This document shows, one piece after another, positions 3,495 to 13,822 of a stretch of DNA of 64,000 nucleotides. The stretch's first letter is position 1; each line of letters opens with the position of its first letter. Source of the stretch: Candidatus Heimdallarchaeota archaeon (GTDB taxonomy: Archaea; Asgardarchaeota; Heimdallarchaeia; Hodarchaeales; Hodarchaeaceae); NCBI GenBank assembly GCA_011364965.1, contig RDOB01000003.1, positions 336,276 through 400,275 of the forward strand, written 5' to 3'. The notes below the pieces were generated by a model. It was not told the origin of the DNA. It ran no database searches and saw only the letters and a list, made by a program, of their open reading frames with translations. The position numbers were made by a program, and so were the translations under genes.

Positions 3495-4502
3495 ATGGCA
3501 AAAGCACAAGATAAAAAAGAAGAAATGGTTGTAGAAAAAGAAATTCAACCAAAAAAAGATAAAAATCTAAGTTCAGAGAAATCTTTCCTTGAATCGATTT
3601 CTGGAATCGGACCAACTACCAAGAAAAGACTTGAAGAAGCAGGATATGGTAGTAAAGAAGCAATTGCTTTAGCAACACGAGCTCAATTAACAGAAATCTC
3701 AGGAATCGCGGAAAAAACGGCAAGTATCCTAATAAGTGAAGCTAGAGCGAGATTTGACCTCGGTTTAAAGAAGGGAACTGAGTTTGAAACAGCAGCAAGA
3801 TCCAGGCAAAAATTAACTACTAGTTCGAAAGTTTTTGATGAATTATTGGCTGGTGGTTTTGAAACAGGGAGCATTACAGAGATCGCAGGGGAAAATGGTT
3901 GTGGAAAAACCCAAATTGCCCATCAAATGGCTGTAAATTGCATTAAGTATTTTGATCGCGATGTTATCTGGATCGATACCGAAGGAACTTTTAGATTTAA
4001 TCGTATTGTCCAAGTAGCTCAAGCAATGGATCTCGATCCTGATTCAGTATTATCTCGGATCACAGTAGGAAGAGCATACAACAGTGAACATCAGATGGCA
4101 TTAACTGAAGAAGCTATTACGACTGTTCCCAATGTAGGTTTAATAATCGTTGACTCTCTAATGGCACATTTTCGATCAGAATTTGCAGGGCGAGCTACAC
4201 TCGCAGAACGACAGCAATTGATAGGGAAACACTTATCTTTCATTGCAAAACAAACCGAGATGTTAAACTGTGTAGGACTGGTAACCAACCAAGTTTCAGC
4301 TAAACCAGATGCTTTATTCTTCGGAGATCCAAATAAACCGGTTGGAGGAAACGTTGTGGGACACACAGTAACTACTCGTTTAATGATTAGGAAAGGCAAA
4401 GACATCAAGAGGACAGCTACTTTAACGAAGAATCCTGAACTTCCTGATGGCAAAATCGAATTTGCAATAACTAGCGAAGGAGTAAGAGATTTCAAAAAAT
4501 AG
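3495..4502 (+). CDS. radA: RadA recombinase (archaeal Rad51/RecA homologue)
   Basis: N-terminal helix-hairpin-helix module (ISGIGPTTKKRLEEAGY ... LTEISGIAEKTA). Walker A is GENGCGKTQ and Walker B is GLIIVDS. Length and ATPase-core layout are typical of RadA. Confidence 0.9.
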   Translation: MAKAQDKKEEMVVEKEIQPKKDKNLSSEKSFLESISGIGPTTKKRLEEAGYGSKEAIALATRAQLTEISGIAEKTASILISEARARFDLGLKKGTEFETAARSRQKLTTSSKVFDELLAGGFETGSITEIAGENGCGKTQIAHQMAVNCIKYFDRDVIWIDTEGTFRFNRIVQVAQAMDLDPDSVLSRITVGRAYNSEHQMALTEEAITTVPNVGLIIVDSLMAHFRSEFAGRATLAERQQLIGKHLSFIAKQTEMLNCVGLVTNQVSAKPDALFFGDPNKPVGGNVVGHTVTTRLMIRKGKDIKRTATLTKNPELPDGKIEFAITSEGVRDFKK

Positions 4503-4622: not shown

Positions 4623-6359
4623 ATAATAGATAGCAATCTTCCACCTGCTCTTCAACTCTTTCCTCATGCAGAGCTGAGAGCTTATCAATCAAATTTTCTA
4701 AGATTCGTTGAGAAGAATCCCAAATCAATTATTCATGCTCCTGTTGGTTTTGGAAAAACGATAATGGCATTAATTTCTGCTTTACCTTTAGTCAAGAATG
4801 AAAATTATCAGCTATTCATTTTTGTAAGAACAAAAGCTCAAGTATTTCGCGTTTTTTTAAATGAAATTGTAAAAATCGCTAATAGCCGAAAATATGGATA
4901 TCTAACAGCAGTTCCTTTAATTCTAAAAGCTGACTTATGCATTAAAAGAAAAGAAATTCCTCAATTTTATCGAGGGGTTTGTGGCAAGATAAGGTGCCCT
5001 CATTTAGAAAAAACATTGTCTATTCCTGAAGAAGATTTCCCAGCAATAGTAGAACAAGTTCCGATTACAGCTCATGGGGATTCTATAGAGGTAGAAACCT
5101 ATATAGAGGCTTTTAAAGAATTCGGATGTCCTTATTATGTGATCAAACGCTGTTTACCCTACGCAAATATTATTGTAACAACACAAACATACCTAAGAAG
5201 CAGAAATCTTCAGGATATGTTTTCTCAGATTCTTTGTAACAGTTCGTTTACCAAAAAATTTGCTATCATCGATGAAGGACACAATTTTGGTGCAGATATC
5301 GAAGCTGAACTACAATTATCAGATCTTATACGCTCGCGCTCAGTAATTCCTCTTAAAGTTCTTGATAGACTAGAAGAATTAATAGTAACTAGGACAGGAC
5401 GAGTAGAAAGGCCTAAAAATTTATCTGTCGCTAGTATTGATGCATTTATTGACCATGATCGCAAAGTATCTATTCAAGACAAAATTAATCTTTGGAAAAT
5501 TAAAGACTTTATTCTTTCAAAGGGAGATATTTGGGTTTCAGAACAGGATAAATTAATTCAAATTAATCCTTTTCCTCATCAAACATTTGACTTCATAAAT
5601 CAATATTTCAACAGAATAATTTTAATGTCTGGAACCTTCATTCCAATGTCCTCTTATCTTGCGTTATATTCCATAAATTATCCTACTTTACAAATCCCCT
5701 CAGATTTTCAGTTCAGTTTGAATGGCATTCTTTATAACCGAACTTTCACTTCAAGATTCAAAGAAAGAACTGAAAATACCTATAAATCAATGGCAAATGT
5801 CATTGAACGACTTCATAAAACGAATCCATTTCATACAATTGTTTTTGCGACTTCCCATGAATTTAAGCAGAAAATTTTGTATCATATGTCTCTTCCGAAC
5901 GTATATGTTGAAAATCCAGGTATTAGACCGTATTTTATTGATGAATTAAAAGAAAGAACTCATGAATGTATATTTGGAGTTATGGGAGGATCATTAGCAG
6001 AGGGGATAGAAATACTTGATTTGAATAAACGGAGCTTACTTACCCTCATCATTATCGCGGGTCTTCCTTTTCCTCAACCTGATGCTACTAATCTTATTCT
6101 CACCAAATTATATTCTGCACGATGGGGTGTAAGAATGGCAAAACATCTAGGAAAATTACCCGTCACTAGAAATATTTCTCAATCAATTGGTAGAGGCATT
6201 CGCTCTGAATCAGATTTCGCTGCAAGCTTGATTTTGGATTATAGGGCAATGAAGCTCAGACAGTTCTTACCTAAAACGCGGATATTTCGGGATATTAATT
6301 CTTTGTACAACGCGTATGACTTATTTTATGCAAAAATGAAGAGAATTTTCCGACTTTAA
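4623..6359 (+). CDS. xpd: XPD/Rad3-family Fe-S DNA helicase
   Basis: Four-Cys Fe-S insertion (DLCIKRK..GVCGKIRCPHL..FGCPYY), DEAH-type box IIDEGHNF, and motif VI QSIGRGIRSESD. Helicase motif I (HAPVGFGKT) and the Q-motif-like RAYQ lie upstream of the first ATG (4764) but in the same open frame, which opens at 4602. The start is therefore placed tentatively at the ATA pair 4623/4626, after GGAG at 4611-4614. Confidence 0.8.
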   Translation: MIDSNLPPALQLFPHAELRAYQSNFLRFVEKNPKSIIHAPVGFGKTIMALISALPLVKNENYQLFIFVRTKAQVFRVFLNEIVKIANSRKYGYLTAVPLILKADLCIKRKEIPQFYRGVCGKIRCPHLEKTLSIPEEDFPAIVEQVPITAHGDSIEVETYIEAFKEFGCPYYVIKRCLPYANIIVTTQTYLRSRNLQDMFSQILCNSSFTKKFAIIDEGHNFGADIEAELQLSDLIRSRSVIPLKVLDRLEELIVTRTGRVERPKNLSVASIDAFIDHDRKVSIQDKINLWKIKDFILSKGDIWVSEQDKLIQINPFPHQTFDFINQYFNRIILMSGTFIPMSSYLALYSINYPTLQIPSDFQFSLNGILYNRTFTSRFKERTENTYKSMANVIERLHKTNPFHTIVFATSHEFKQKILYHMSLPNVYVENPGIRPYFIDELKERTHECIFGVMGGSLAEGIEILDLNKRSLLTLIIIAGLPFPQPDATNLILTKLYSARWGVRMAKHLGKLPVTRNISQSIGRGIRSESDFAASLILDYRAMKLRQFLPKTRIFRDINSLYNAYDLFYAKMKRIFRL

Positions 6360-8248
6360 TCTGGTGATTCTGATAAATCTAAGGAAATATCAGAGATTAT
6401 CGATGGAATTTCATTGATAGAATTTAAAATAATCACGGACACTCCTAACTTACTAGTTAGATGAAAAAAATGTCTCCGGAATTTCAAACTAGCTGATGCT
6501 ATACTATTAGGAAAAATTAAGCAATAAACCTTGGTATGATCCTCAAGAAGATAATTAAAGGTGGTTTTTAGATCAAAGTCAAATAAATCTCCAAGAGTAT
6601 CCTCTGAGACTATTAGAAAAAAGATAGAGGATCCTAATCTTATTCCTGGAAACTTCATTGAGTTATCAAAGTTAATTTTAAAGTCCTTTTCCGGAAATAG
6701 GGATGGAAAATCATTTTCAAAAAAGGTTGGAGAGAAATGAAGATAGATTATACTATCCGAGGTCTGATTAAGGGGTTCAGAAGTACCAATATTACTCGGA
6801 AGAGGGATTAAAGTCTCATTTATTTTTTCAATTTCATTAGCTTTAAGATAATCCCTTTTTCCAATATTCTTTAGGTAAAAAAATCTAGATTCTTCATTGG
6901 TTTGTTTTGATAATAAAAAAACTCTAGGAATAGGTCGTTTTACTTTATTTAATTTGTCTACATTTTCCGCATTGACATCATAAGCAATTATCACTTCAGC
7001 ATAATCCTCAATAATATCATTTATGGTATTAGAAATACATACATGGGAATTTCTCAATTTAAAATGTTGAAGTCTTTTATCCAATTCTAATCTAGGAATT
7101 GAACTTATCGGTTGTTTAAAATGGATGACAGAATAGCAATTTTCGATTAATAAGTCTTTCAGAAATACACTATTTTCAAAATTATGAGTAACAAGAGATA
7201 CTCCTGATCGAAAATTAGAGAGTAATTTTAATAGAAACTGCGATTTGGGGTGGTTTAAATCCTCATAAAGTTCTATATACTGAAAAATTTTTTTTATTTT
7301 GGGATCTGATAAAAAAATCTCAATTGCACGTCGGCCAATAAATTCTCCCTTATCTTTTCTACGAATATCCAGTTCATTGAGATAATTTAATGCAGCTCGA
7401 AATCCTTGTGACACAATTATTTTTTGTAGGGTAAAAATTCTTTGGAGATTTCCTGTCTGGATAAGAAGCTCCCCAGATCTAGATTCAGTTTTTAAACTCT
7501 CATGAATGGCAACAATTTCTCTAAAAGTACATTTATTGGTTAATATAAATCCTTTATTTTGTAATTGTTTAATTTCAAATGATTTAATCTGATTTAATAT
7601 GTCTAAAATAAATATATATTGCTCTGGTAACGGTAAAGAATAACGTAGAACATTTTCTCTGTTTGAAGAATTAATATTCTCTAATTCAACAACTTCCTGC
7701 AAAAGTAAATTTTCACATAGAGCTCGTATTTTCTCTGAGGAATATATATTTGAAAACGCGCATAAACGTATTTCTCCCATTTTTTGAGTTATGTAACGAA
7801 GCGAACGGGAACTTGCTCCCATCTCTGCATTCAATATTAAGAGAAGAGAAAATTTCTTATTAGGAATCATTTTTTCTTTTAGATCATTTTTGACTGTTTT
7901 TGGTGTAGCTAATATAATCGGATACCGTTCATAATCATTCAACCGAGCTTGTGGGAGAATTGATCCATTCAATATAGTGATACGACTATCTAAGATTTTG
8001 GATAGTGAGACTTGAATTTCTTTCTGAATGTTCCGGCGAGATATAATTAAAACCTTAGAGGTCAATGGTTCAAGTGTCTGGTTCATATGAAAGAGACTGA
8101 GGATTGCAATAGCTCTAGCTAACTTTTCTTCTGAAGAATAAAGAAAAAGAATATTCTTATCCCTAGATTTCGGCAAAATCAGCTGTTCTTCAACGGAGGG
8201 ATCGAATTTTAATCTTTTCACCATAGAGTTGTGGTCAGATAGACTCAA
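6356..8248 (-). CDS. Hef/FANCM/XPF-family protein with degenerate helicase and nuclease motifs (predicted pseudo-enzyme)
   Basis: It appears collinear with my recalled Hef helicase layout, including IILATPKTVKNDL (family motif ATPQ..ND) and the inserted helical domain. Motif I is replaced by LYSSEEKLA, DEAH by LNAE, TASP by AFSN, and QRxGRxGR by KLNKVKRP. The C-terminal ~130 aa has ERCC4-like spacing but no GDx(n)ERK residues. TTG start. Confidence 0.6.
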   Translation of the reverse strand: MSLSDHNSMVKRLKFDPSVEEQLILPKSRDKNILFLYSSEEKLARAIAILSLFHMNQTLEPLTSKVLIISRRNIQKEIQVSLSKILDSRITILNGSILPQARLNDYERYPIILATPKTVKNDLKEKMIPNKKFSLLLILNAEMGASSRSLRYITQKMGEIRLCAFSNIYSSEKIRALCENLLLQEVVELENINSSNRENVLRYSLPLPEQYIFILDILNQIKSFEIKQLQNKGFILTNKCTFREIVAIHESLKTESRSGELLIQTGNLQRIFTLQKIIVSQGFRAALNYLNELDIRRKDKGEFIGRRAIEIFLSDPKIKKIFQYIELYEDLNHPKSQFLLKLLSNFRSGVSLVTHNFENSVFLKDLLIENCYSVIHFKQPISSIPRLELDKRLQHFKLRNSHVCISNTINDIIEDYAEVIIAYDVNAENVDKLNKVKRPIPRVFLLSKQTNEESRFFYLKNIGKRDYLKANEIEKINETLIPLPSNIGTSEPLNQTSDSIIYLHFSPTFFENDFPSLFPEKDFKINFDNSMKFPGIRLGSSIFFLIVSEDTLGDLFDFDLKTTFNYLLEDHTKVYCLIFPNSIASASLKFRRHFFHLTSKLGVSVIILNSINEIPSIISDISLDLSESPD

Positions 8249-8565
8249 GATTCAGCAGCTCTTGAATCGAAGGTCGTGTCTTGGAAATTATAAGAATAAA
8301 ATCTAGAATCGTATTCAGTGTCTTTTTCTTCTGAAGTATCGTCATCATCCCCAAAGTTTTCTATCCAATTACGGTGTGCTGAACAAGTGATTATTTGGGA
8401 ATTCTTTACTACAAGATTAAAGGGAATACGACGGTTTAATAAGAGAGAACATACCCCTCCAAAGGTACTTCCATATTCACAAATTTGACACAACGGACTG
8501 TTTAGGAATACATCATCCAAAAAAGGTAAGGGTGTTTCTGCCTTTCTTATTTTATGCATTTTCAA
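8245..8565 (-). CDS. Small Cys/His-containing protein with acidic C-terminal tail, hypothetical
   Basis: 106-aa ORF. Its TGA stop overlaps the TTG start of the downstream Hef-like gene (TTGA at 8245-8248). It carries CQIC..C..CSAH spacing and a DDDDTSEEKDTE tract. Confidence 0.5.
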   Translation of the reverse strand: MKMHKIRKAETPLPFLDDVFLNSPLCQICEYGSTFGGVCSLLLNRRIPFNLVVKNSQIITCSAHRNWIENFGDDDDTSEEKDTEYDSRFYSYNFQDTTFDSRAAES

Positions 8566-8690
8566 TCATCTCTAAAAGAAAGTCCATCACTAATTATTAC
8601 AAATGGAGTTTATATATCAGAAATTAAGCATGTTGAGGACTCGCTTTTATGAATATAAAAGAAGATGAACAATATTATCATTGAAGTAAA

Positions 8691-9191
8691 TTGTTATCAG
8701 AAAAACAAATACTCGATAATCTCGATCACATTCTTGTTGAAAAATTGAAGTTCCAAACATATTTAGAATTGCAATTGAATGATTTGCATATCGAAATTCA
8801 AAATCTTACGCACACAAACCAAAAACAAATCAGAATTGATCTTGCAGGTATTAATCAGTTAGATGCATCAATTCATTTTTTTGAAGCAGAAACTCAACTA
8901 CAAATCAGTCATCCATCAATTTACCGATCATTTTGTGATTACTGTTATCTTGTATGCCCAGATAAGCAATTTGACATTTTAGACTCTGTGACAAAAGAAC
9001 AGCAAATATCTTGGGCTGAAAAAATAGGAATAGGTATAATTACTTTCTCCAATAATAATGAAATGCGTGTCCGAATACAAGCTAAAAGACAGGAGATGCA
9101 TTCTCTTATCAGAAAGGAAGTCCTGAGAATGATGAATGATCGGTACAAAATTAGGTTTTCTACAATTCCATTGTGGGAGCGAACTAGATAA
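8691..9191 (+). CDS. Hypothetical protein, possible PD-(D/E)XK nuclease fold (MmcB-like, tentative)
   Basis: RIDLAGI-x13-FFEAETQL followed by FCDYCYLVCPD resembles the D..(D/E)xK core plus the downstream Cys-containing strand of MmcB-type repair nucleases. TTG start. The assignment comes from memory of the family pattern only. Confidence 0.35.
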   Translation: MLSEKQILDNLDHILVEKLKFQTYLELQLNDLHIEIQNLTHTNQKQIRIDLAGINQLDASIHFFEAETQLQISHPSIYRSFCDYCYLVCPDKQFDILDSVTKEQQISWAEKIGIGIITFSNNNEMRVRIQAKRQEMHSLIRKEVLRMMNDRYKIRFSTIPLWERTR

Positions 9192-9215
9192 AACTAAGGT
9201 AGCTAAAGGATTTTT

Positions 9216-9704
9216 ATGCATCAAAGAAGGAAAGTTAGTGTCTGTTCGGACACAGAGAAGAATAAAACGGAAATATATAACCATATAGATGAATTAATAA
9301 GCAATTGTAAATGGGAAGAAGCAGAAAACAATCTTATGTATCTATATCGTGCAATGCCCAATAATATAAACAATATTCGACTCAAATTTGCCGTATTATA
9401 TTCTAAAAAGCAAGATTTTACAAAATCGATCCTTTTCTTGCAGGAATTAATACCTACGCATGATTTTCATGTTTATACGCTTTTTATTCAAAGTTTAGTT
9501 AAACTTGGTGAGAAAAATCAAGCTATCTTGGAATTAGCCCGAGCACCACTATCAGAACAGGAAAAACAGGGTATACAATTTAATTATCTTCAAGAAAATA
9601 GAGTTAGTAAGTGTAATAGTCTTGAATTCAATTTTATGTGTTCAAAATGTAATAAATTTCTATACTTGGTTGAGCAAAAGGTAAAGTGTTTATTCTGCTC
9701 TTAA
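9216..9704 (+). CDS. TPR-like helical protein with C-terminal CxxC..CxxC zinc ribbon, hypothetical
   Basis: Helical-repeat composition, with a C-terminal CSKCNKF..x11..KCLFCS. Confidence 0.4.
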   Translation: MHQRRKVSVCSDTEKNKTEIYNHIDELISNCKWEEAENNLMYLYRAMPNNINNIRLKFAVLYSKKQDFTKSILFLQELIPTHDFHVYTLFIQSLVKLGEKNQAILELARAPLSEQEKQGIQFNYLQENRVSKCNSLEFNFMCSKCNKFLYLVEQKVKCLFCS

Positions 9705-10969
9705 TCATCAGATGAATTAGATTTTAAAAGTTTATATTTCTCCGATAGCGGTTTACAAGTCTCTAATTGAGTATTTATTCTTGAAAGGATTGTCTCATTG
9801 AATTTGTGTAGTCCTTCTGCATTTTGTGGGATATTCAAACTTGAAAAATCAATTTTAACTGACTCAGGGACTGAATCTTTAGGAAGGATTTTATTAGACA
9901 TAATATCATCAGGAAGTTCATTAAACTCATCTTCAGACTTATTTTGTTCCTTATTTAATGAGAGAATTTCTCCTTCTTCGGAATTAAGAAATTCAGCAAA
10001 TTTTCTATCATTTAAGCCTTTTAGTTGTAATGCTTCCTCAGGAGAAATATCTGGAATTTCTTCTGCAGGTGAAGAAAGAGGTTCTTCATTAGATTCAGGT
10101 TTAGCTAATAAATCTCTTATAATTTCAGTTTCATTAACTGTAGAATCCGTGGAAAAGGCTGTACTATTAGGAAAATAGGCATAATTTTTTGTAACTTCAT
10201 TTTCACCAATATCAGAGCGAATAGGATAGTTTGATATCTCATCATATACTACAGCGTCAAGATTGTTTAAAGTAAGCTCTTTTGCCGAAGAAGGTTCTGT
10301 TTTAGGTTTTATTTTTCGTCCAGATAGTAGACTAAGCTTTTCAGTTTGGGAAGGCACAAATATGTTTGAATAGGTATAATTTGATGTTTCTGTAATGTCA
10401 GAAAATGCATTAGGATTTACAACAGGAGTTAATAACAATCCTGGTACTACTTTCTGAACAGCATTCTTGAAATCAAATCCCCTTTCATGGATATCAAAGA
10501 AAAAATCATTTAAATGCATTTCTTTAAGAGTAGGAAAGTTCAAATTAGGAAAAGTGATTGTTAAATTGAATAATGTATTTTTAGAATCTTCAATTATTCT
10601 GAATTCAAATTCCTGAAAGTTTTTTAATACTGAAAGCCTAAAATTTGGAGGTTTAGCCTCAACCTGATATTCCAACATTACTGTGGTTTTATTTTCATGT
10701 TTCGAATATATTATTACAGCTTCCGGGATATTTGGCGTAGTAAAAATTTCTTCAGAAGGATTCAAGGATGCATAATGCAATTGATTTATCTGATTTTTTC
10801 TATCAAACCCGTCTAGGAATAAACCAACGAGATATCCCATTCCTCCGAATAAAAAAAGATAAATCGTGCTTTGATCTACCGATAGATAAAATAAATAACC
10901 TAATAGGAAGCCTATGATAGTTGTTAAAAAACTCCGATTACCTAGAGTCATTTTATTCTCCACAAACAA
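9701..10969 (-). CDS. Membrane-anchored hypothetical protein
   Basis: Two N-terminal hydrophobic helices (FLTTIIGFLLGYLFYL, IYLFLFGGMGYLVGLFL). These are followed by a globular region and a Ser/Glu/Pro-rich low-complexity tail. Confidence 0.45.
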   Translation of the reverse strand: MFVENKMTLGNRSFLTTIIGFLLGYLFYLSVDQSTIYLFLFGGMGYLVGLFLDGFDRKNQINQLHYASLNPSEEIFTTPNIPEAVIIYSKHENKTTVMLEYQVEAKPPNFRLSVLKNFQEFEFRIIEDSKNTLFNLTITFPNLNFPTLKEMHLNDFFFDIHERGFDFKNAVQKVVPGLLLTPVVNPNAFSDITETSNYTYSNIFVPSQTEKLSLLSGRKIKPKTEPSSAKELTLNNLDAVVYDEISNYPIRSDIGENEVTKNYAYFPNSTAFSTDSTVNETEIIRDLLAKPESNEEPLSSPAEEIPDISPEEALQLKGLNDRKFAEFLNSEEGEILSLNKEQNKSEDEFNELPDDIMSNKILPKDSVPESVKIDFSSLNIPQNAEGLHKFNETILSRINTQLETCKPLSEKYKLLKSNSSDD

Positions 10970-11062
10970 TTTCGATTCTTTCTATTCTTATATTCCCCCT
11001 TTTGTTTATATATTCAAAATTTCTAAAACTTTGATAGAATACACTAACTTTGGAAAAAAACC

Positions 11063-13822
11063 TCAGTGATATGTATGGGAAAATAAATTATAACTTTCGT
11101 CAAGTGACACTGCTTCTCCTTTCATTATCTTCTTCAAGATGTGTTTGGCACCCAATTTATCTAATTTTGTATTATTATGACTACAGAAAGGAAGGAATGT
11201 GCATTTAGGACAACCTGAAGGCTGCAAGCAATCACAAAGTAATAAATTGTATGCTCGTTTTAGCATCTTTTTAAGATGATAGCGAAGCATAGCACAAACT
11301 CCTGATCCATTAGGTTGATCATATAGGAGAATATAACTTTGAGGCATTAAAGCAAGTCCATTTATCTCATTCAAATTCCCTCCAATGAAAGGAAGACTTG
11401 CATGGAGAAGAACATGAACAAGAGTATGAATAGAGGCAATTTGGTTCTGAACGTCTGTGTCCAATTGATGTTTTTCGCTTTCAGGTATTCTAAATATTAA
11501 TCCTTTTGATTTTGCAGAATAGTAAATTGGCTCCCGTAATTTATGAGCTGAAGATCCATTAGGAGTATTAAGTATAAATCCATGGACAGCTTGACGAATT
11601 TTAACTGATATATCGGCCACTTCAATATTATAAACACAATATCTATCCTCAATGTTTAGAATTTCAGGTTTTACCGAACATAAAGGGTAGGTTTGACCCC
11701 ATTTTATGTGGGGTTTTGTTAAGATTGCAGTTCCTTGGAATCCGTTAAAATTAAAACTAGCAACACGATAGCGAATGCCACCTGCATAATAAAAAGCCCC
11801 GGGATATAATTCCAACATAGCCATTGGTAGGGATCGTTTACCAATGATAGATCCTCCTCTAACTTTAATGTGTATTTCATGGTTTTTTCCTCTAATAGAA
11901 TATTGACGTGCGTGTTCTTGTCCTTTTAACGTCGGATAAAAGGGAGAATTATCTGATTGCTGTAATAATTTTTTCTCATACAATTGCTGAATAGTACTAA
12001 TATGATCTGGAAACTCAGTACTCTCGAGAGGTCTATCTAAAGAGGCGCATAATAATTGATATTTGATTACAACAGGATTTCCAGGATCAAGGTAAATATC
12101 TTCAATATCATTATAGTATTGATCAGGATGCTTATAATAATAATGTGAAATTGGATCCTCAGCATTCAGGAGTACAATTGCAAGGGCTTCCTGACCTTTC
12201 CTTCCAGCGCGCCCAATGCGTTGCATAGCCCGATTCACACTCACAGGAGGGGTGATTACAATATCCAAATCCCCTTGATCTATTCCTAATTCATAAGTAG
12301 GTGTGGCAACAAGTATATTGAGTTTTCCTTCCCTGAAATCAGTTTCAACCTCTTGACGAATCCTTTGATCCAATCCTGCTCTATGGATTCCGATGTTATT
12401 TGCTTTACCTCCAAGTTTCTGATATAGTAATTCTGCAGCACGATGAGAATCTTGAAAAATAAGCATTTTTCCTCTTCCCTTAATCGCATTTACCAAACTA
12501 TTAGTGCTATCTAATGTTGATATCCCAGCAAAAGGAGCAAGCATAAGGAAGTGCGTACGTCCCCTACGTCCCTTTTTGCACTCAATAATTTTGACCTCCC
12601 TGTTTAAAAGACGTTCTACAAATTTCTGGGGATTAGCAACAGTAGCGGAGGCGCCGATATACTGAAGTTTTTGACCAACAATGCGTTCAAGTCTTCTTAA
12701 TATGAAGTGCATATTAGAACCGAATGTACCTGAATAGGAATGGATCTCGTCTAATATCACAATTTTCAGGTTTGACAAAAGATCCTGAAACTTCTGAGAA
12801 TTTTTTCCAAGCCCTAAGTGATAGTGCAGAATGTCAGGATTCGTTATGAGGATTTCGGGAGGATCAGAAAAGATCTTTTGACGCCAATAATGTGTTGTAT
12901 CACCATCAAATACCTTTATAGAGAGACCAACAGTAGAGACAACCTCCTCCAACTTACGTTTTTGATCTTTAGCAAGGGCTTTCATTGGGTAGATTATCAC
13001 AATTTGTACGCCACAGTCTTTAAATCCTTGAATTTTCAATAATGAAGGAATTAAAAATGCTTCAGTCTTTCCAGTACCAGTTGGAGCTACAATGCATACA
13101 TCTTGGGAATTACGAATTGCGTTAAAAGCTGAATATTGGTATTTATAGAGTTTATTAATCCCCCTCGATTTTAAAAGTGCTATTAACTTGGAATTTTCAA
13201 GGCATTCTACAATTGGTCCATATTCTCCGCTCTGTTCCTCAAATATCCGATAATCTACAATTTGATGTTGAGCATAAGAAATAACACGTTGTAATCCCAA
13301 TGGGAGATCTATTGATTTTACATTGAAAAATTCCTCAAATTCAGGAAGGTTCATAATCGGACGGGGTGCAGTTTTCTTCATTTCCAGTCCATCAATAAGC
13401 CCGTATTCCTGATTCTTGGGAATTTCTTTCAACGTACCAGAATTAATCAACCTTAATTTTGTTGCTTTTTGCAAACCTGAACTATTTCCACCAGCTAAAG
13501 CATAATATTTTTGTAAACAGAATTCAGCTTTTAAATTATCTTTTATTGAAAAATAAAGAGAAGATAAGTTCTTCCAAGTATCACGATTAGAATTATCAAT
13601 AGTTAGAATACGTCCATAAGTATTCTTGGCCTCGTCAATCCTTTTCAGCTTGATAAATTGATTTGCTATCTCTGTAAGAAGACTTATCGGGGGACTTGGG
13701 TGAGTACGGAGTGCTAGGTCACATAATTCTCTAAGAAATTCTTCTTTATCCCGATTTAGTTTATAATCTTCTAAAAGCTCACGATAACGATCCCAATAAG
13801 TTAGTTCTAGTTGATTAGTCAT
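11063..13822 (-). CDS. DEAD/DEAH-box helicase with C-terminal DUF1998/MZB four-Cys domain (MrfA/YprA/Hrq1-like) and N-terminal TPR-like extension
   Basis: Motif I APTGTGKTEAF, motif II ILDEIHSYSG, SATV, HRAGL, and motif VI QRIGRAGRKG. The C-terminal cluster is CDCLQPSGCPKC..FCSHNNTKLDK, the DUF1998 signature. Confidence 0.8.
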   Translation of the reverse strand: MTNQLELTYWDRYRELLEDYKLNRDKEEFLRELCDLALRTHPSPPISLLTEIANQFIKLKRIDEAKNTYGRILTIDNSNRDTWKNLSSLYFSIKDNLKAEFCLQKYYALAGGNSSGLQKATKLRLINSGTLKEIPKNQEYGLIDGLEMKKTAPRPIMNLPEFEEFFNVKSIDLPLGLQRVISYAQHQIVDYRIFEEQSGEYGPIVECLENSKLIALLKSRGINKLYKYQYSAFNAIRNSQDVCIVAPTGTGKTEAFLIPSLLKIQGFKDCGVQIVIIYPMKALAKDQKRKLEEVVSTVGLSIKVFDGDTTHYWRQKIFSDPPEILITNPDILHYHLGLGKNSQKFQDLLSNLKIVILDEIHSYSGTFGSNMHFILRRLERIVGQKLQYIGASATVANPQKFVERLLNREVKIIECKKGRRGRTHFLMLAPFAGISTLDSTNSLVNAIKGRGKMLIFQDSHRAAELLYQKLGGKANNIGIHRAGLDQRIRQEVETDFREGKLNILVATPTYELGIDQGDLDIVITPPVSVNRAMQRIGRAGRKGQEALAIVLLNAEDPISHYYYKHPDQYYNDIEDIYLDPGNPVVIKYQLLCASLDRPLESTEFPDHISTIQQLYEKKLLQQSDNSPFYPTLKGQEHARQYSIRGKNHEIHIKVRGGSIIGKRSLPMAMLELYPGAFYYAGGIRYRVASFNFNGFQGTAILTKPHIKWGQTYPLCSVKPEILNIEDRYCVYNIEVADISVKIRQAVHGFILNTPNGSSAHKLREPIYYSAKSKGLIFRIPESEKHQLDTDVQNQIASIHTLVHVLLHASLPFIGGNLNEINGLALMPQSYILLYDQPNGSGVCAMLRYHLKKMLKRAYNLLLCDCLQPSGCPKCTFLPFCSHNNTKLDKLGAKHILKKIMKGEAVSLDESYNLFSHTYH

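Follow-up and report, generated by a model that had tools for sequence, protein, structure and literature searches.

What does a DNA repair enzyme do once its motor and its nuclease have both been silenced, and why would an archaeal lineage keep it? The question is raised by two overlapping genes in a 64,000-nucleotide stretch of DNA from Candidatus Heimdallarchaeota archaeon (GenBank assembly GCA_011364965.1, contig RDOB01000003.1, forward-strand positions 336,276 to 400,275), to which we refer as the window and in whose numbering all coordinates are given. The longer gene (6356..8248, minus strand) encodes a protein of 630 residues from a TTG start codon, a start supported by the N-terminal register of the orthologs; the shorter one (8245..8565, minus strand), placed from the open reading frame (ORF) listing and from alignment, encodes a small protein with four conserved cysteines (Cys4), of 106 residues counted from its own TTG. 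Both ORFs stand as a preliminary description of this DNA, made from the letters alone, had listed them. Here we show that the longer gene encodes a lineage-specific paralog of Hef, an archaeal helicase-nuclease of the XPF/MUS81/FANCM superfamily, and that this paralog coexists with an active Hef.

Fork rescue, crosslink repair, nucleotide excision repair and meiotic crossovers all depend centrally on helicase-nucleases of the Hef/XPF/FANCM type, whose regulation in eukaryotes falls in large part to catalytically dead paralogs. To our knowledge, archaea had been credited with a single active form, either the long Hef or the short XPF. What we describe is a conserved, selected and doubly dead Hef paralog, with a small and putatively metal-binding partner, beside an active Hef in an Asgard lineage. 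The heimdallarchaeial lineage is often placed nearest the eukaryotes, a placement that is disputed (PMC12222021). The gene pair offers a tractable two-protein system in which to ask what the Hef scaffold does without its motors, and neither of the two protein families that it defines is recognised by any Pfam model.

Pfam returned nothing for the 630-residue protein, and in particular no DEAD, Helicase_C, ERCC4 or HHH match. A phmmer search against all PDB sequences gave a sole match, the Pyrococcus furiosus Hef helicase 1wp9 (E 4.6e-5, residues 13-343), and a profile of 25 family members found 1wp9 at E 1e-15 and nothing else. The NCBIfam model 'Hef nuclease' (NF010337) matched residues 50-345 only, with E 3.7e-21 and a score of 74.9 bits that is well below the curated equivalog cut-off of 610 bits. 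When the family profile was aligned by hhalign with eight canonical Hefs (probability 99.9%, E 1.5e-34), residues 10-630 ran collinear with residues 2-670 of 748, through lobe 1, the helical insert, lobe 2, the linker and the ERCC4 domain. The alignment stops there, with the terminal HhH2 of Hef outside it, and the protein ends with its ERCC4-like domain. The Hef/FANCM/XPF layout proposed in the preliminary description is thus significant by the NCBIfam model, by the 1wp9 profile match and by hhalign, whereas the absence of HhH2 had been missed. Two metagenome pipelines label members of the family 'ERCC4-related helicase', so the homology itself is machine-detectable.

Mapping of the motifs by hhalign places RecA-like lobe 1 at residues 10-199 (7652..8221, on the minus strand like the domains that follow). 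The Hef-type helical insert, aligned to that of Hef, occupies residues 200-345 (7214..7651), ends in a conserved HPK motif and is modelled as all-helical, with a predicted local distance difference test score (pLDDT) of about 84-94 over most of the domain. RecA-like lobe 2, delimited by family and profile alignments, spans residues 346-462 (6863..7213). A linker of low confidence and poor conservation (0.38) at residues 463-498 (6755..6862), in a region where pLDDT falls below 50 at residues 448-468 and 483-498, leads to an ERCC4-fold domain without catalytic residues at residues 499-630 (6359..6754), assigned from AlphaFold2 and Foldseek, and no HhH2 follows it.

The AlphaFold2 model of the full-length protein (pLDDT 80) has as its best Foldseek PDB matches the Hef helicase 1wp9, human XPF and the FANCM translocase, and its match to human XPF extends over about 700 aligned columns with the ERCC4 domain included. 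The C-terminal 135 residues, modelled alone, reached a pLDDT of 91 and a predicted template-modelling (pTM) score of 0.84. The best match of this model is the P. furiosus Hef nuclease (1j22/1j24, TM 0.72-0.74), followed by FAAP24, A. pernix XPF, EME1, FANCM, ERCC1 and Zip2:Spo16; all of its top 49 Foldseek PDB matches are ERCC4 domains of the XPF/MUS81 family. What the preliminary description could call only an ERCC4-sized domain therefore adopts, in the prediction, an ERCC4 fold. By sequence, hhalign of the C-terminal domain alone against ERCC4 is weak (E 0.11), so that the fold assignment rests on the structure search together with the full-length profile alignment. Taken together, the 630-residue protein has the Hef fold, with two RecA-like lobes, helical insert and ERCC4 domain, minus HhH2.

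The columns that correspond to the catalytic motifs were read from hhalign against canonical Hefs and from the alignment of the family, with 24 relatives. At the position of the Walker A motif GLGKT the protein has SEEKL (in LYSSEEKLA; YSxEE in the family), and at the position of DEAH it has LNAE (xxAE in the family), within a former DExH segment that here reads LNAEMGASSRSLRY. FSN (in AFSN) stands in place of TAS in motif III, motif V is degenerate (CISNTINDII), and the QRxGRGR of motif VI has no counterpart, the local stretch being DKLNKVKRP. In the nuclease, PG stands at the GD position and SED at the ERK position, where the family has a hydrophobic residue, P and D/E. None of the 24 aligned relatives keeps Walker A, DExH, motif III, motif VI or GDxnERKx3D, whereas canonical Hodarchaeales Hefs keep GLGKT, DE[AV]H, QRxGRGR and GDY..ERK..D. 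As judged from these alignments, ATPase motifs I, II, III and VI and the nuclease motif have been lost in every aligned member. The strings quoted in the preliminary description were all found (IILATPKTVKNDL, LYSSEEKLA, LNAE, AFSN and KLNKVKRP, and in the small protein C-x2-C...C...C-x2-H and GDDDDTSEEKD), and profile alignment recovered no hidden GKT, DEAH or ERK. Misaligned motifs are ruled out as an explanation, since HMMER, hhalign and MAFFT all put non-catalytic residues at motifs I, II, VI and GD/ERK across the family.

The former DExH region is now a conserved motif of its own, AEMGxSSSSLRY, and the conservation of this segment is 0.77, compared with 0.62 for the whole protein. Two nucleic-acid-contact motifs are retained: motif Ib as NGSILPQARLNDY (NGSILPNARKxDY in the family, conservation 0.83) and motif Ic as ATPKTVKNDL (TPKTxKNDL, 0.75). 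The Hef-specific AKxTxEE motif is kept in lobe 2 as LSKQTNEESRFFYLK, and the AKQT segment AKQTNEEARFFYLK is the most conserved of the protein (0.86). Lobe 1 has a mean net charge of +7.2 (pI 9.4), against -3 to -6 in canonical Hefs, and the helical insert is basic too (net +3.9). The new motif in the former DExH region, the conservation of Ib, Ic and AKxTxEE and the charge switch of lobe 1 argue for replacement of the catalytic motifs and not for their relaxation.

The homologue search yielded the 24 relatives at 37-46% identity, all of them in metagenome-assembled genomes (MAGs) labelled Heimdallarchaeota, Hodarchaeales or 'Promethearchaeota', and the family alignment contains 48 invariant columns. 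A scan of 185,579 species genomes gave 13 loci, all of Heimdallarchaeota/Hodarchaeales type. Intact orthologs are found at 17 distinct related loci, in Heimdallarchaeia/Hodarchaeales-type MAGs only, and the decay for which the preliminary description had allowed is not seen: the relatives carry no frameshifts or stops, and the one apparent truncation, at locus L013, reflects a stretch masked as N. When HMMER was run exhaustively over 1.84 billion representative proteins, family members scored above 540 bits and the list later dropped to 122 bits; the shorter matches to part of the profile that score in between are apparently fragments or partial members. Just below the drop, every match with a named source is a canonical Hef-type protein, in most cases of Hodarchaeales and in the remainder of another Asgard MAG.

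Active and dead forms occur in the same genomes. The canonical Hef P0227 (GLGKT, DEVH, QRRGRGR, GDY..ERK..D) is encoded on the 4,943,496-bp chromosome CP070695.1 together with the dead member P0007, and the canonical Hef P0235 is recorded on a 3,155,959-bp contig, equal in length to chromosome CP070760.1, which bears the gene pair (L013). The dead Hef is therefore a paralog, and for these relatives the idea that it could be the organism's sole Hef is ruled out by the presence of the canonical gene on the same chromosomes. In a neighbour-joining tree the dead family forms a long monophyletic branch with no resolved attachment point, and divergence within the family (0.51) is similar to that among canonical Hodarchaeales Hefs (0.51). 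The similar divergence fits an early burst that later gave way to purifying selection, the regime under which the sequences indicate that the family is maintained. A specific kinship with eukaryotic XPF or FANCM is not what the searches point to: the family profile matches no eukaryotic PDB chain and the nearest named proteins outside the family are Asgard Hefs, and the neighbour-joining tree neither shows such a kinship nor excludes it. One subclade (P0022-25, loci L002 and L015-L018) is without the ERCC4-like domain and keeps both the small partner and the synteny; there the Hef-like gene ends against the convergent XPD gene.

The small gene accompanies its larger neighbour throughout. At every locus examined it lies immediately upstream of the Hef-like gene and on the same strand, and the gene pair that the preliminary description had proposed is thus conserved in the relatives. 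The TTGA overlap to which it had drawn attention is present here, the TGA stop of the small gene overlapping the TTG start of the 630-residue frame (tcTTGAgt), and this TTG gives 14 residues before the F-x-P-S motif, which matches the N-terminal register of the orthologs exactly. Across most loci, the start codon that yields this 14-residue N-terminus falls within -4 to +13 nt of the small-gene stop, with larger gaps of about 30-48 nt in a few. The 4-nt overlap is accordingly one variant of the layout and not itself conserved, whereas the tight spacing is. The presence of the small gene upstream everywhere and the tight spacing make co-transcription and tight translational coupling well-supported predictions. 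Reading of the sequence upstream of the small gene reveals an AT-rich divergent intergenic region (8566..8690) that separates it from the gene for a 166-residue protein; this region contains the TATA-like tracts ttttatatt and gatatataaa and presumably represents the putative promoter of the operon. An ATG at 8559, two codons inside the TTG-started frame, is the likelier start of the small protein, which would then have 104 residues.

For the small protein 41 relatives were found, all standalone and all in Heimdall/Hodarchaeales-type MAGs. They share a core of about 55 residues, PFLDEVFxNSPLCQICEYASxFGGVCSLLLNRRIP...SCSAHRNW, with 19 invariant columns; C24, C27, C37 and C59 are invariant and H62 is near-invariant. 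The core is 63-86% identical across loci, as against 38-46% for the Hef-like protein. The tail that follows ranges from 3 to 41 residues, several orthologs having just 3-5; its sequence is not conserved, but 28 of 29 tails are net acidic, with a mean charge of -5.4. The acidic DDDD/E tail emphasised in the preliminary description is thus present here and, in the family, conserved in composition only, being nearly absent from some orthologs. Searches of Pfam, NCBIfam, PADLOC and PDB sequences returned no match for the small protein, and matches to GPN-loop GTPases, at E 0.2-0.8, are noise.

How does the pair compare with known systems? Canonical Hef (helicase 1wp9, nuclease 1j22-1j25; NF010337/PRK13766) and the dead paralog have in common the fold and domain order, from lobe 1 through helical insert, lobe 2 and linker to ERCC4, as well as the motifs TPxTxxND, HPK and AKxTxEE. 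Hef keeps the ATPase and nuclease motifs and HhH2, all of which the dead paralog lacks; lobe 1 is acidic in Hef and basic in the dead paralog, and an obligate small Cys4 gene partner is a feature of the dead paralog. Eukaryotic XPF (ERCC4; 6sxa, 9qec) likewise contains a Hef-derived helicase-like domain without ATPase motifs, which serves as a platform for protein and DNA interactions. XPF, however, has a working nuclease, retains HhH2 and forms a pair with ERCC1, whereas the nuclease of the dead paralog is inactive by its motifs and HhH2 is missing; the family profile, searched against PDB at E up to 10, gave no sequence match to XPF chains. In FANCM-FAAP24 the ERCC4-like domain is also without catalytic residues, and both FAAP24 and the C-terminus of FANCM rank among the best structural matches, but FANCM is an active translocase with HhH2 and the dead paralog has neither the translocase motifs nor HhH2.

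A FANCM-like arrangement does occur in Hodarchaeales, in a separate, third class of Hef paralogs represented by P0074 and P0215 on metagenome contigs outside the window. These proteins have GLGKT, DEAH and QRxGRGR intact and carry HhH2, while their ERCC4-like region is without GD and ERK, has no Pfam ERCC4 match and aligns with ERCC4 by hhalign at E 2.7e-4. By their motifs, they represent a FANCM-like architecture in an archaeon.

ERCC1, EME1 and Zip2/SHOC1-Spo16 share with the dead paralog a dead ERCC4 fold, which they use for binding of structure-specific DNA or of partners. They form heterodimers through ERCC4 and HhH2, whereas the dead paralog, known from its sequence, has no HhH2. An ERCC4-HhH2 core arrangement has been described for the non-catalytic subunits of the family (PMC5962103), and Zip2:Spo16 binds branched DNA and stabilises recombination intermediates (PMC6411835, PMC5859969, PMC5962103). 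The statement in the preliminary description that known members have lost one activity at most is qualified by ERCC1, EME1, FAAP24, Zip2/SHOC1 and Spo16, which are purely non-catalytic proteins of the XPF family (PMC5962103, PMC6411835, PMC5859969). What stands is that neither a full-length protein of Hef type in which both modules are dead nor the Cys4 partner turned up in our literature searches. We know of no non-catalytic ERCC4 protein with a complete Hef-type pseudo-helicase. The dead paralog resembles the non-catalytic members of the XPF/MUS81/FANCM group and yet lacks defining features of Hef, XPF and FANCM, as well as the HhH2 of ERCC1-type partners.

We propose, with a probability of roughly 0.55, that the pair constitutes a predicted ATP-independent adaptor or regulator complex that binds branched DNA. 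Both products would be made stoichiometrically from one transcript, via termination-reinitiation or very tight coupling, and would form a predicted complex in which the Cys4 protein may bind a metal, as zinc or as an Fe-S cluster, and the pseudo-helicase may clamp or sense branched or single-stranded DNA independently of ATP. DNA binding free of ATP is predicted because motifs Ib and Ic and the Hef insert are kept and because lobe 1 is strongly basic. Such a complex might serve as adaptor or regulator for the XPD-like helicase, RadA, the MZB helicase and/or the canonical Hef, with the acidic tail and the dead ERCC4-like groove as candidate protein-protein or DNA-mimic regulatory elements. Several observations weigh against this proposal. 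HhH2, usually the main DNA-binding and dimerisation element of the XPF family, is absent. Among the folded parts the ERCC4-like domain has the lowest conservation (0.54), and since a subclade does without it, its role is dispensable. The neighbours other than the small gene are not co-directional, so that linkage to XPD and RadA comes from conserved synteny only. Finally, the ligand of the basic lobe 1 could be RNA or the acidic tail instead of DNA.

The comparison that the preliminary description had drawn with ERCC1, FAAP24 and EME1 yields a plausible scaffold as the predicted role, although the analogy is imperfect because the family lacks HhH2 and, in the subclade, the ERCC4-like domain as well. 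If the resemblance extends to mechanism, the dead ERCC4-like domain would heterodimerise with the canonical Hef or another XPF-type nuclease and so turn a homodimeric nuclease into an asymmetric heterodimer targeted by the pseudo-helicase and the small protein. The ERCC4 fold, with the non-catalytic FAAP24, EME1, ERCC1 and Spo16 among its structural neighbours, and the intact canonical Hef in the same genomes fit such a partnership, and every eukaryotic XPF-family nuclease is a heterodimer of this kind (PMC5962103). We nevertheless consider it unlikely, since much of the XPF-ERCC1-type dimer interface belongs to the absent HhH2, the ERCC4-like domain is the least conserved of all the domains, and the subclade that has dispensed with it retains partner and synteny; moreover, the canonical Hef gene lies outside the island, and none was found within the 64-kb window.

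Somewhat more doubtful is the possibility that the pseudo-helicase is a decoy or antagonist, a basic protein that would occupy forks and joint molecules and block active Hef or helicases, gated by the DNA-mimicking acidic tail. Opposite charges in lobe 1 and in the partner tail (acidic in those 28 of 29), DNA-contact motifs kept where the ATPase motifs were lost, and a co-resident active paralog are all what such an antagonist would call for. The tail, however, shrinks to 3-5 residues in several orthologs and has no conserved sequence, and a placement with RadA and helicases fits a positive adaptor role equally well.

On a broader and decidedly speculative view, the splitting of Hef into specialised pseudoenzyme paralogs, a hallmark of the eukaryotic XPF/MUS81/FANCM/Zip2 family, began as early as Heimdallarchaeia, and the doubly dead complex would correspond to, or even be related to, eukaryotic non-catalytic complexes that scaffold joint molecules or lesions, forming a module of proto-nucleotide-excision-repair or crossover type with XPD and RadA. 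Genomes of this group carry three Hef forms, namely the fully active one, the FANCM-like one with a live motor and a degenerate nuclease, and the doubly dead one with its dedicated Cys4 partner; such diversification is hinted at by the third, FANCM-like paralog class. The eukaryotic candidates for comparison are the helicase-like domain of XPF with XPA, and Zip2/SHOC1-Spo16. This view depends on the contested placement of eukaryotes relative to Heimdallarchaeia (PMC12222021).

A sensor of RNA, R-loops or RNA:DNA hybrids is improbable. The Hef helicase fold is common to RIG-I, MDA5 and Dicer, Foldseek matches to the helicase modules of RIG-I, MDA5, LGP2 and Dicer reach E 1e-16 to 1e-18, and the basic lobe 1 and insert would suit an RNA ligand. 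The sequence affinity is specifically with Hef, however (1wp9 only in PDB, with Hodarchaeales Hefs as best matches outside the family), an ERCC4 domain follows the helicase module, and the conserved neighbours are genes of DNA recombination and repair. More improbable still is a cryptic enzyme with ATPase and/or nuclease activity through non-canonical residues: Q22 of the Q motif, several segments lining the cleft and a Glu in the former DExH region (AEMG) are conserved, but the P-loop Gly-Lys-Thr, both acidic residues of DExH and the motif VI arginines are gone in all aligned members, and the metal-binding Asp and Glu and the catalytic Lys of the nuclease have become G, a hydrophobic residue and D/E. 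A decaying pseudogene or chance ORF, which has the loss of catalytic motifs and nothing else in its favour, is refuted by the intact orthologs at 17 distinct loci with their 48 invariant columns; it also has against it new conserved motifs at the former active sites, conserved synteny and base composition, as an ORF of 630 codons in DNA of 31% G+C is not expected by chance (about 31-38% G+C in the window).

The gene pair is part of a conserved recombination and repair island, with synteny across loci L001-L018, several members of which are uncharacterised (the 166-, 162- and 422-residue proteins and, in relatives, a protein of about 865 residues). One edge of the island is the recombinase gene radA (3495..4502, plus strand; Pfam Rad51 E 2.8e-70), which is syntenic in the relatives. 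Next to it lies the gene for an Fe-S helicase of the XPD/DinG family (4623..6359, plus strand; Pfam DEAD_2 and Helicase_C_2) with Walker A (APVGFGKT), DEGH and four Cys intact. The Hef-like gene had been described as back-to-back with XPD; the two are in fact convergent, their stop codons overlapping at 6356-6359, and the XPD-like helicase is the convergent neighbour at most loci. The XPD-like frame extends upstream of its first ATG (4764), being open from about 4605, and reads IIDSNLPPALQLFPH...APVGFGKT there; this extension aligns with the ortholog N-terminus (MIDTNLPP...). A truncated XPD without Walker A is therefore an artefact of first-ATG ORF calling. ATG, GTG and TTG are all unavailable in the extension, and translation probably starts at an ATA at about 4623/4626, preceded by aggagaagga.

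Beyond the intergenic region, the rest of the island (8691..13822) comprises four genes. The first (8691-9191, plus strand) encodes the 166-residue protein, with weak matches to NCBIfam sce7726 (E 2.5e-4; sce7726/MmcB-like) and to Pfam YOMG_N. It is 52-64% identical at nearly all related loci, contains the motif RIDLA...FFEAET...CDYCYLVCP and is a candidate for the catalytic component of the island, perhaps as a small protein of PD-(D/E)xK-like or Cys-cluster type. A 162-residue TPR-like protein that ends in a CxxC...CxxC zinc ribbon (9216-9704, plus strand) and a 422-residue protein with two N-terminal transmembrane helices and an acidic C-terminal half (9701-10969, minus strand) have no family assignment and are conserved in the island, the latter being an unexpected membrane protein for a repair island. 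A 919-residue DEAD helicase (11063-13822, minus strand), with a TPR-like N-terminal region and a C-terminal MZB domain (MrfA Zn-binding, DUF1998), is a conserved outer member related to repair helicases of the MrfA/Hrq1 type. A defence island was considered and ruled out, as PADLOC gave no match beyond generic helicase similarity, and the Hef-like protein, its small partner and the three small neighbours matched nothing there. Several relatives (e.g. L002-L005) have an additional gene between XPD and RadA, not present in the window, for the protein of about 865 residues (L002:9154-11757, minus strand; also L003 and L005). It has no Pfam match and contains a HerA/DUF87-like stretch, ILVCGSEKNE...VIDTHNEF, and its degenerate-looking Walker A suggests that it may be another dead ATPase of the island.

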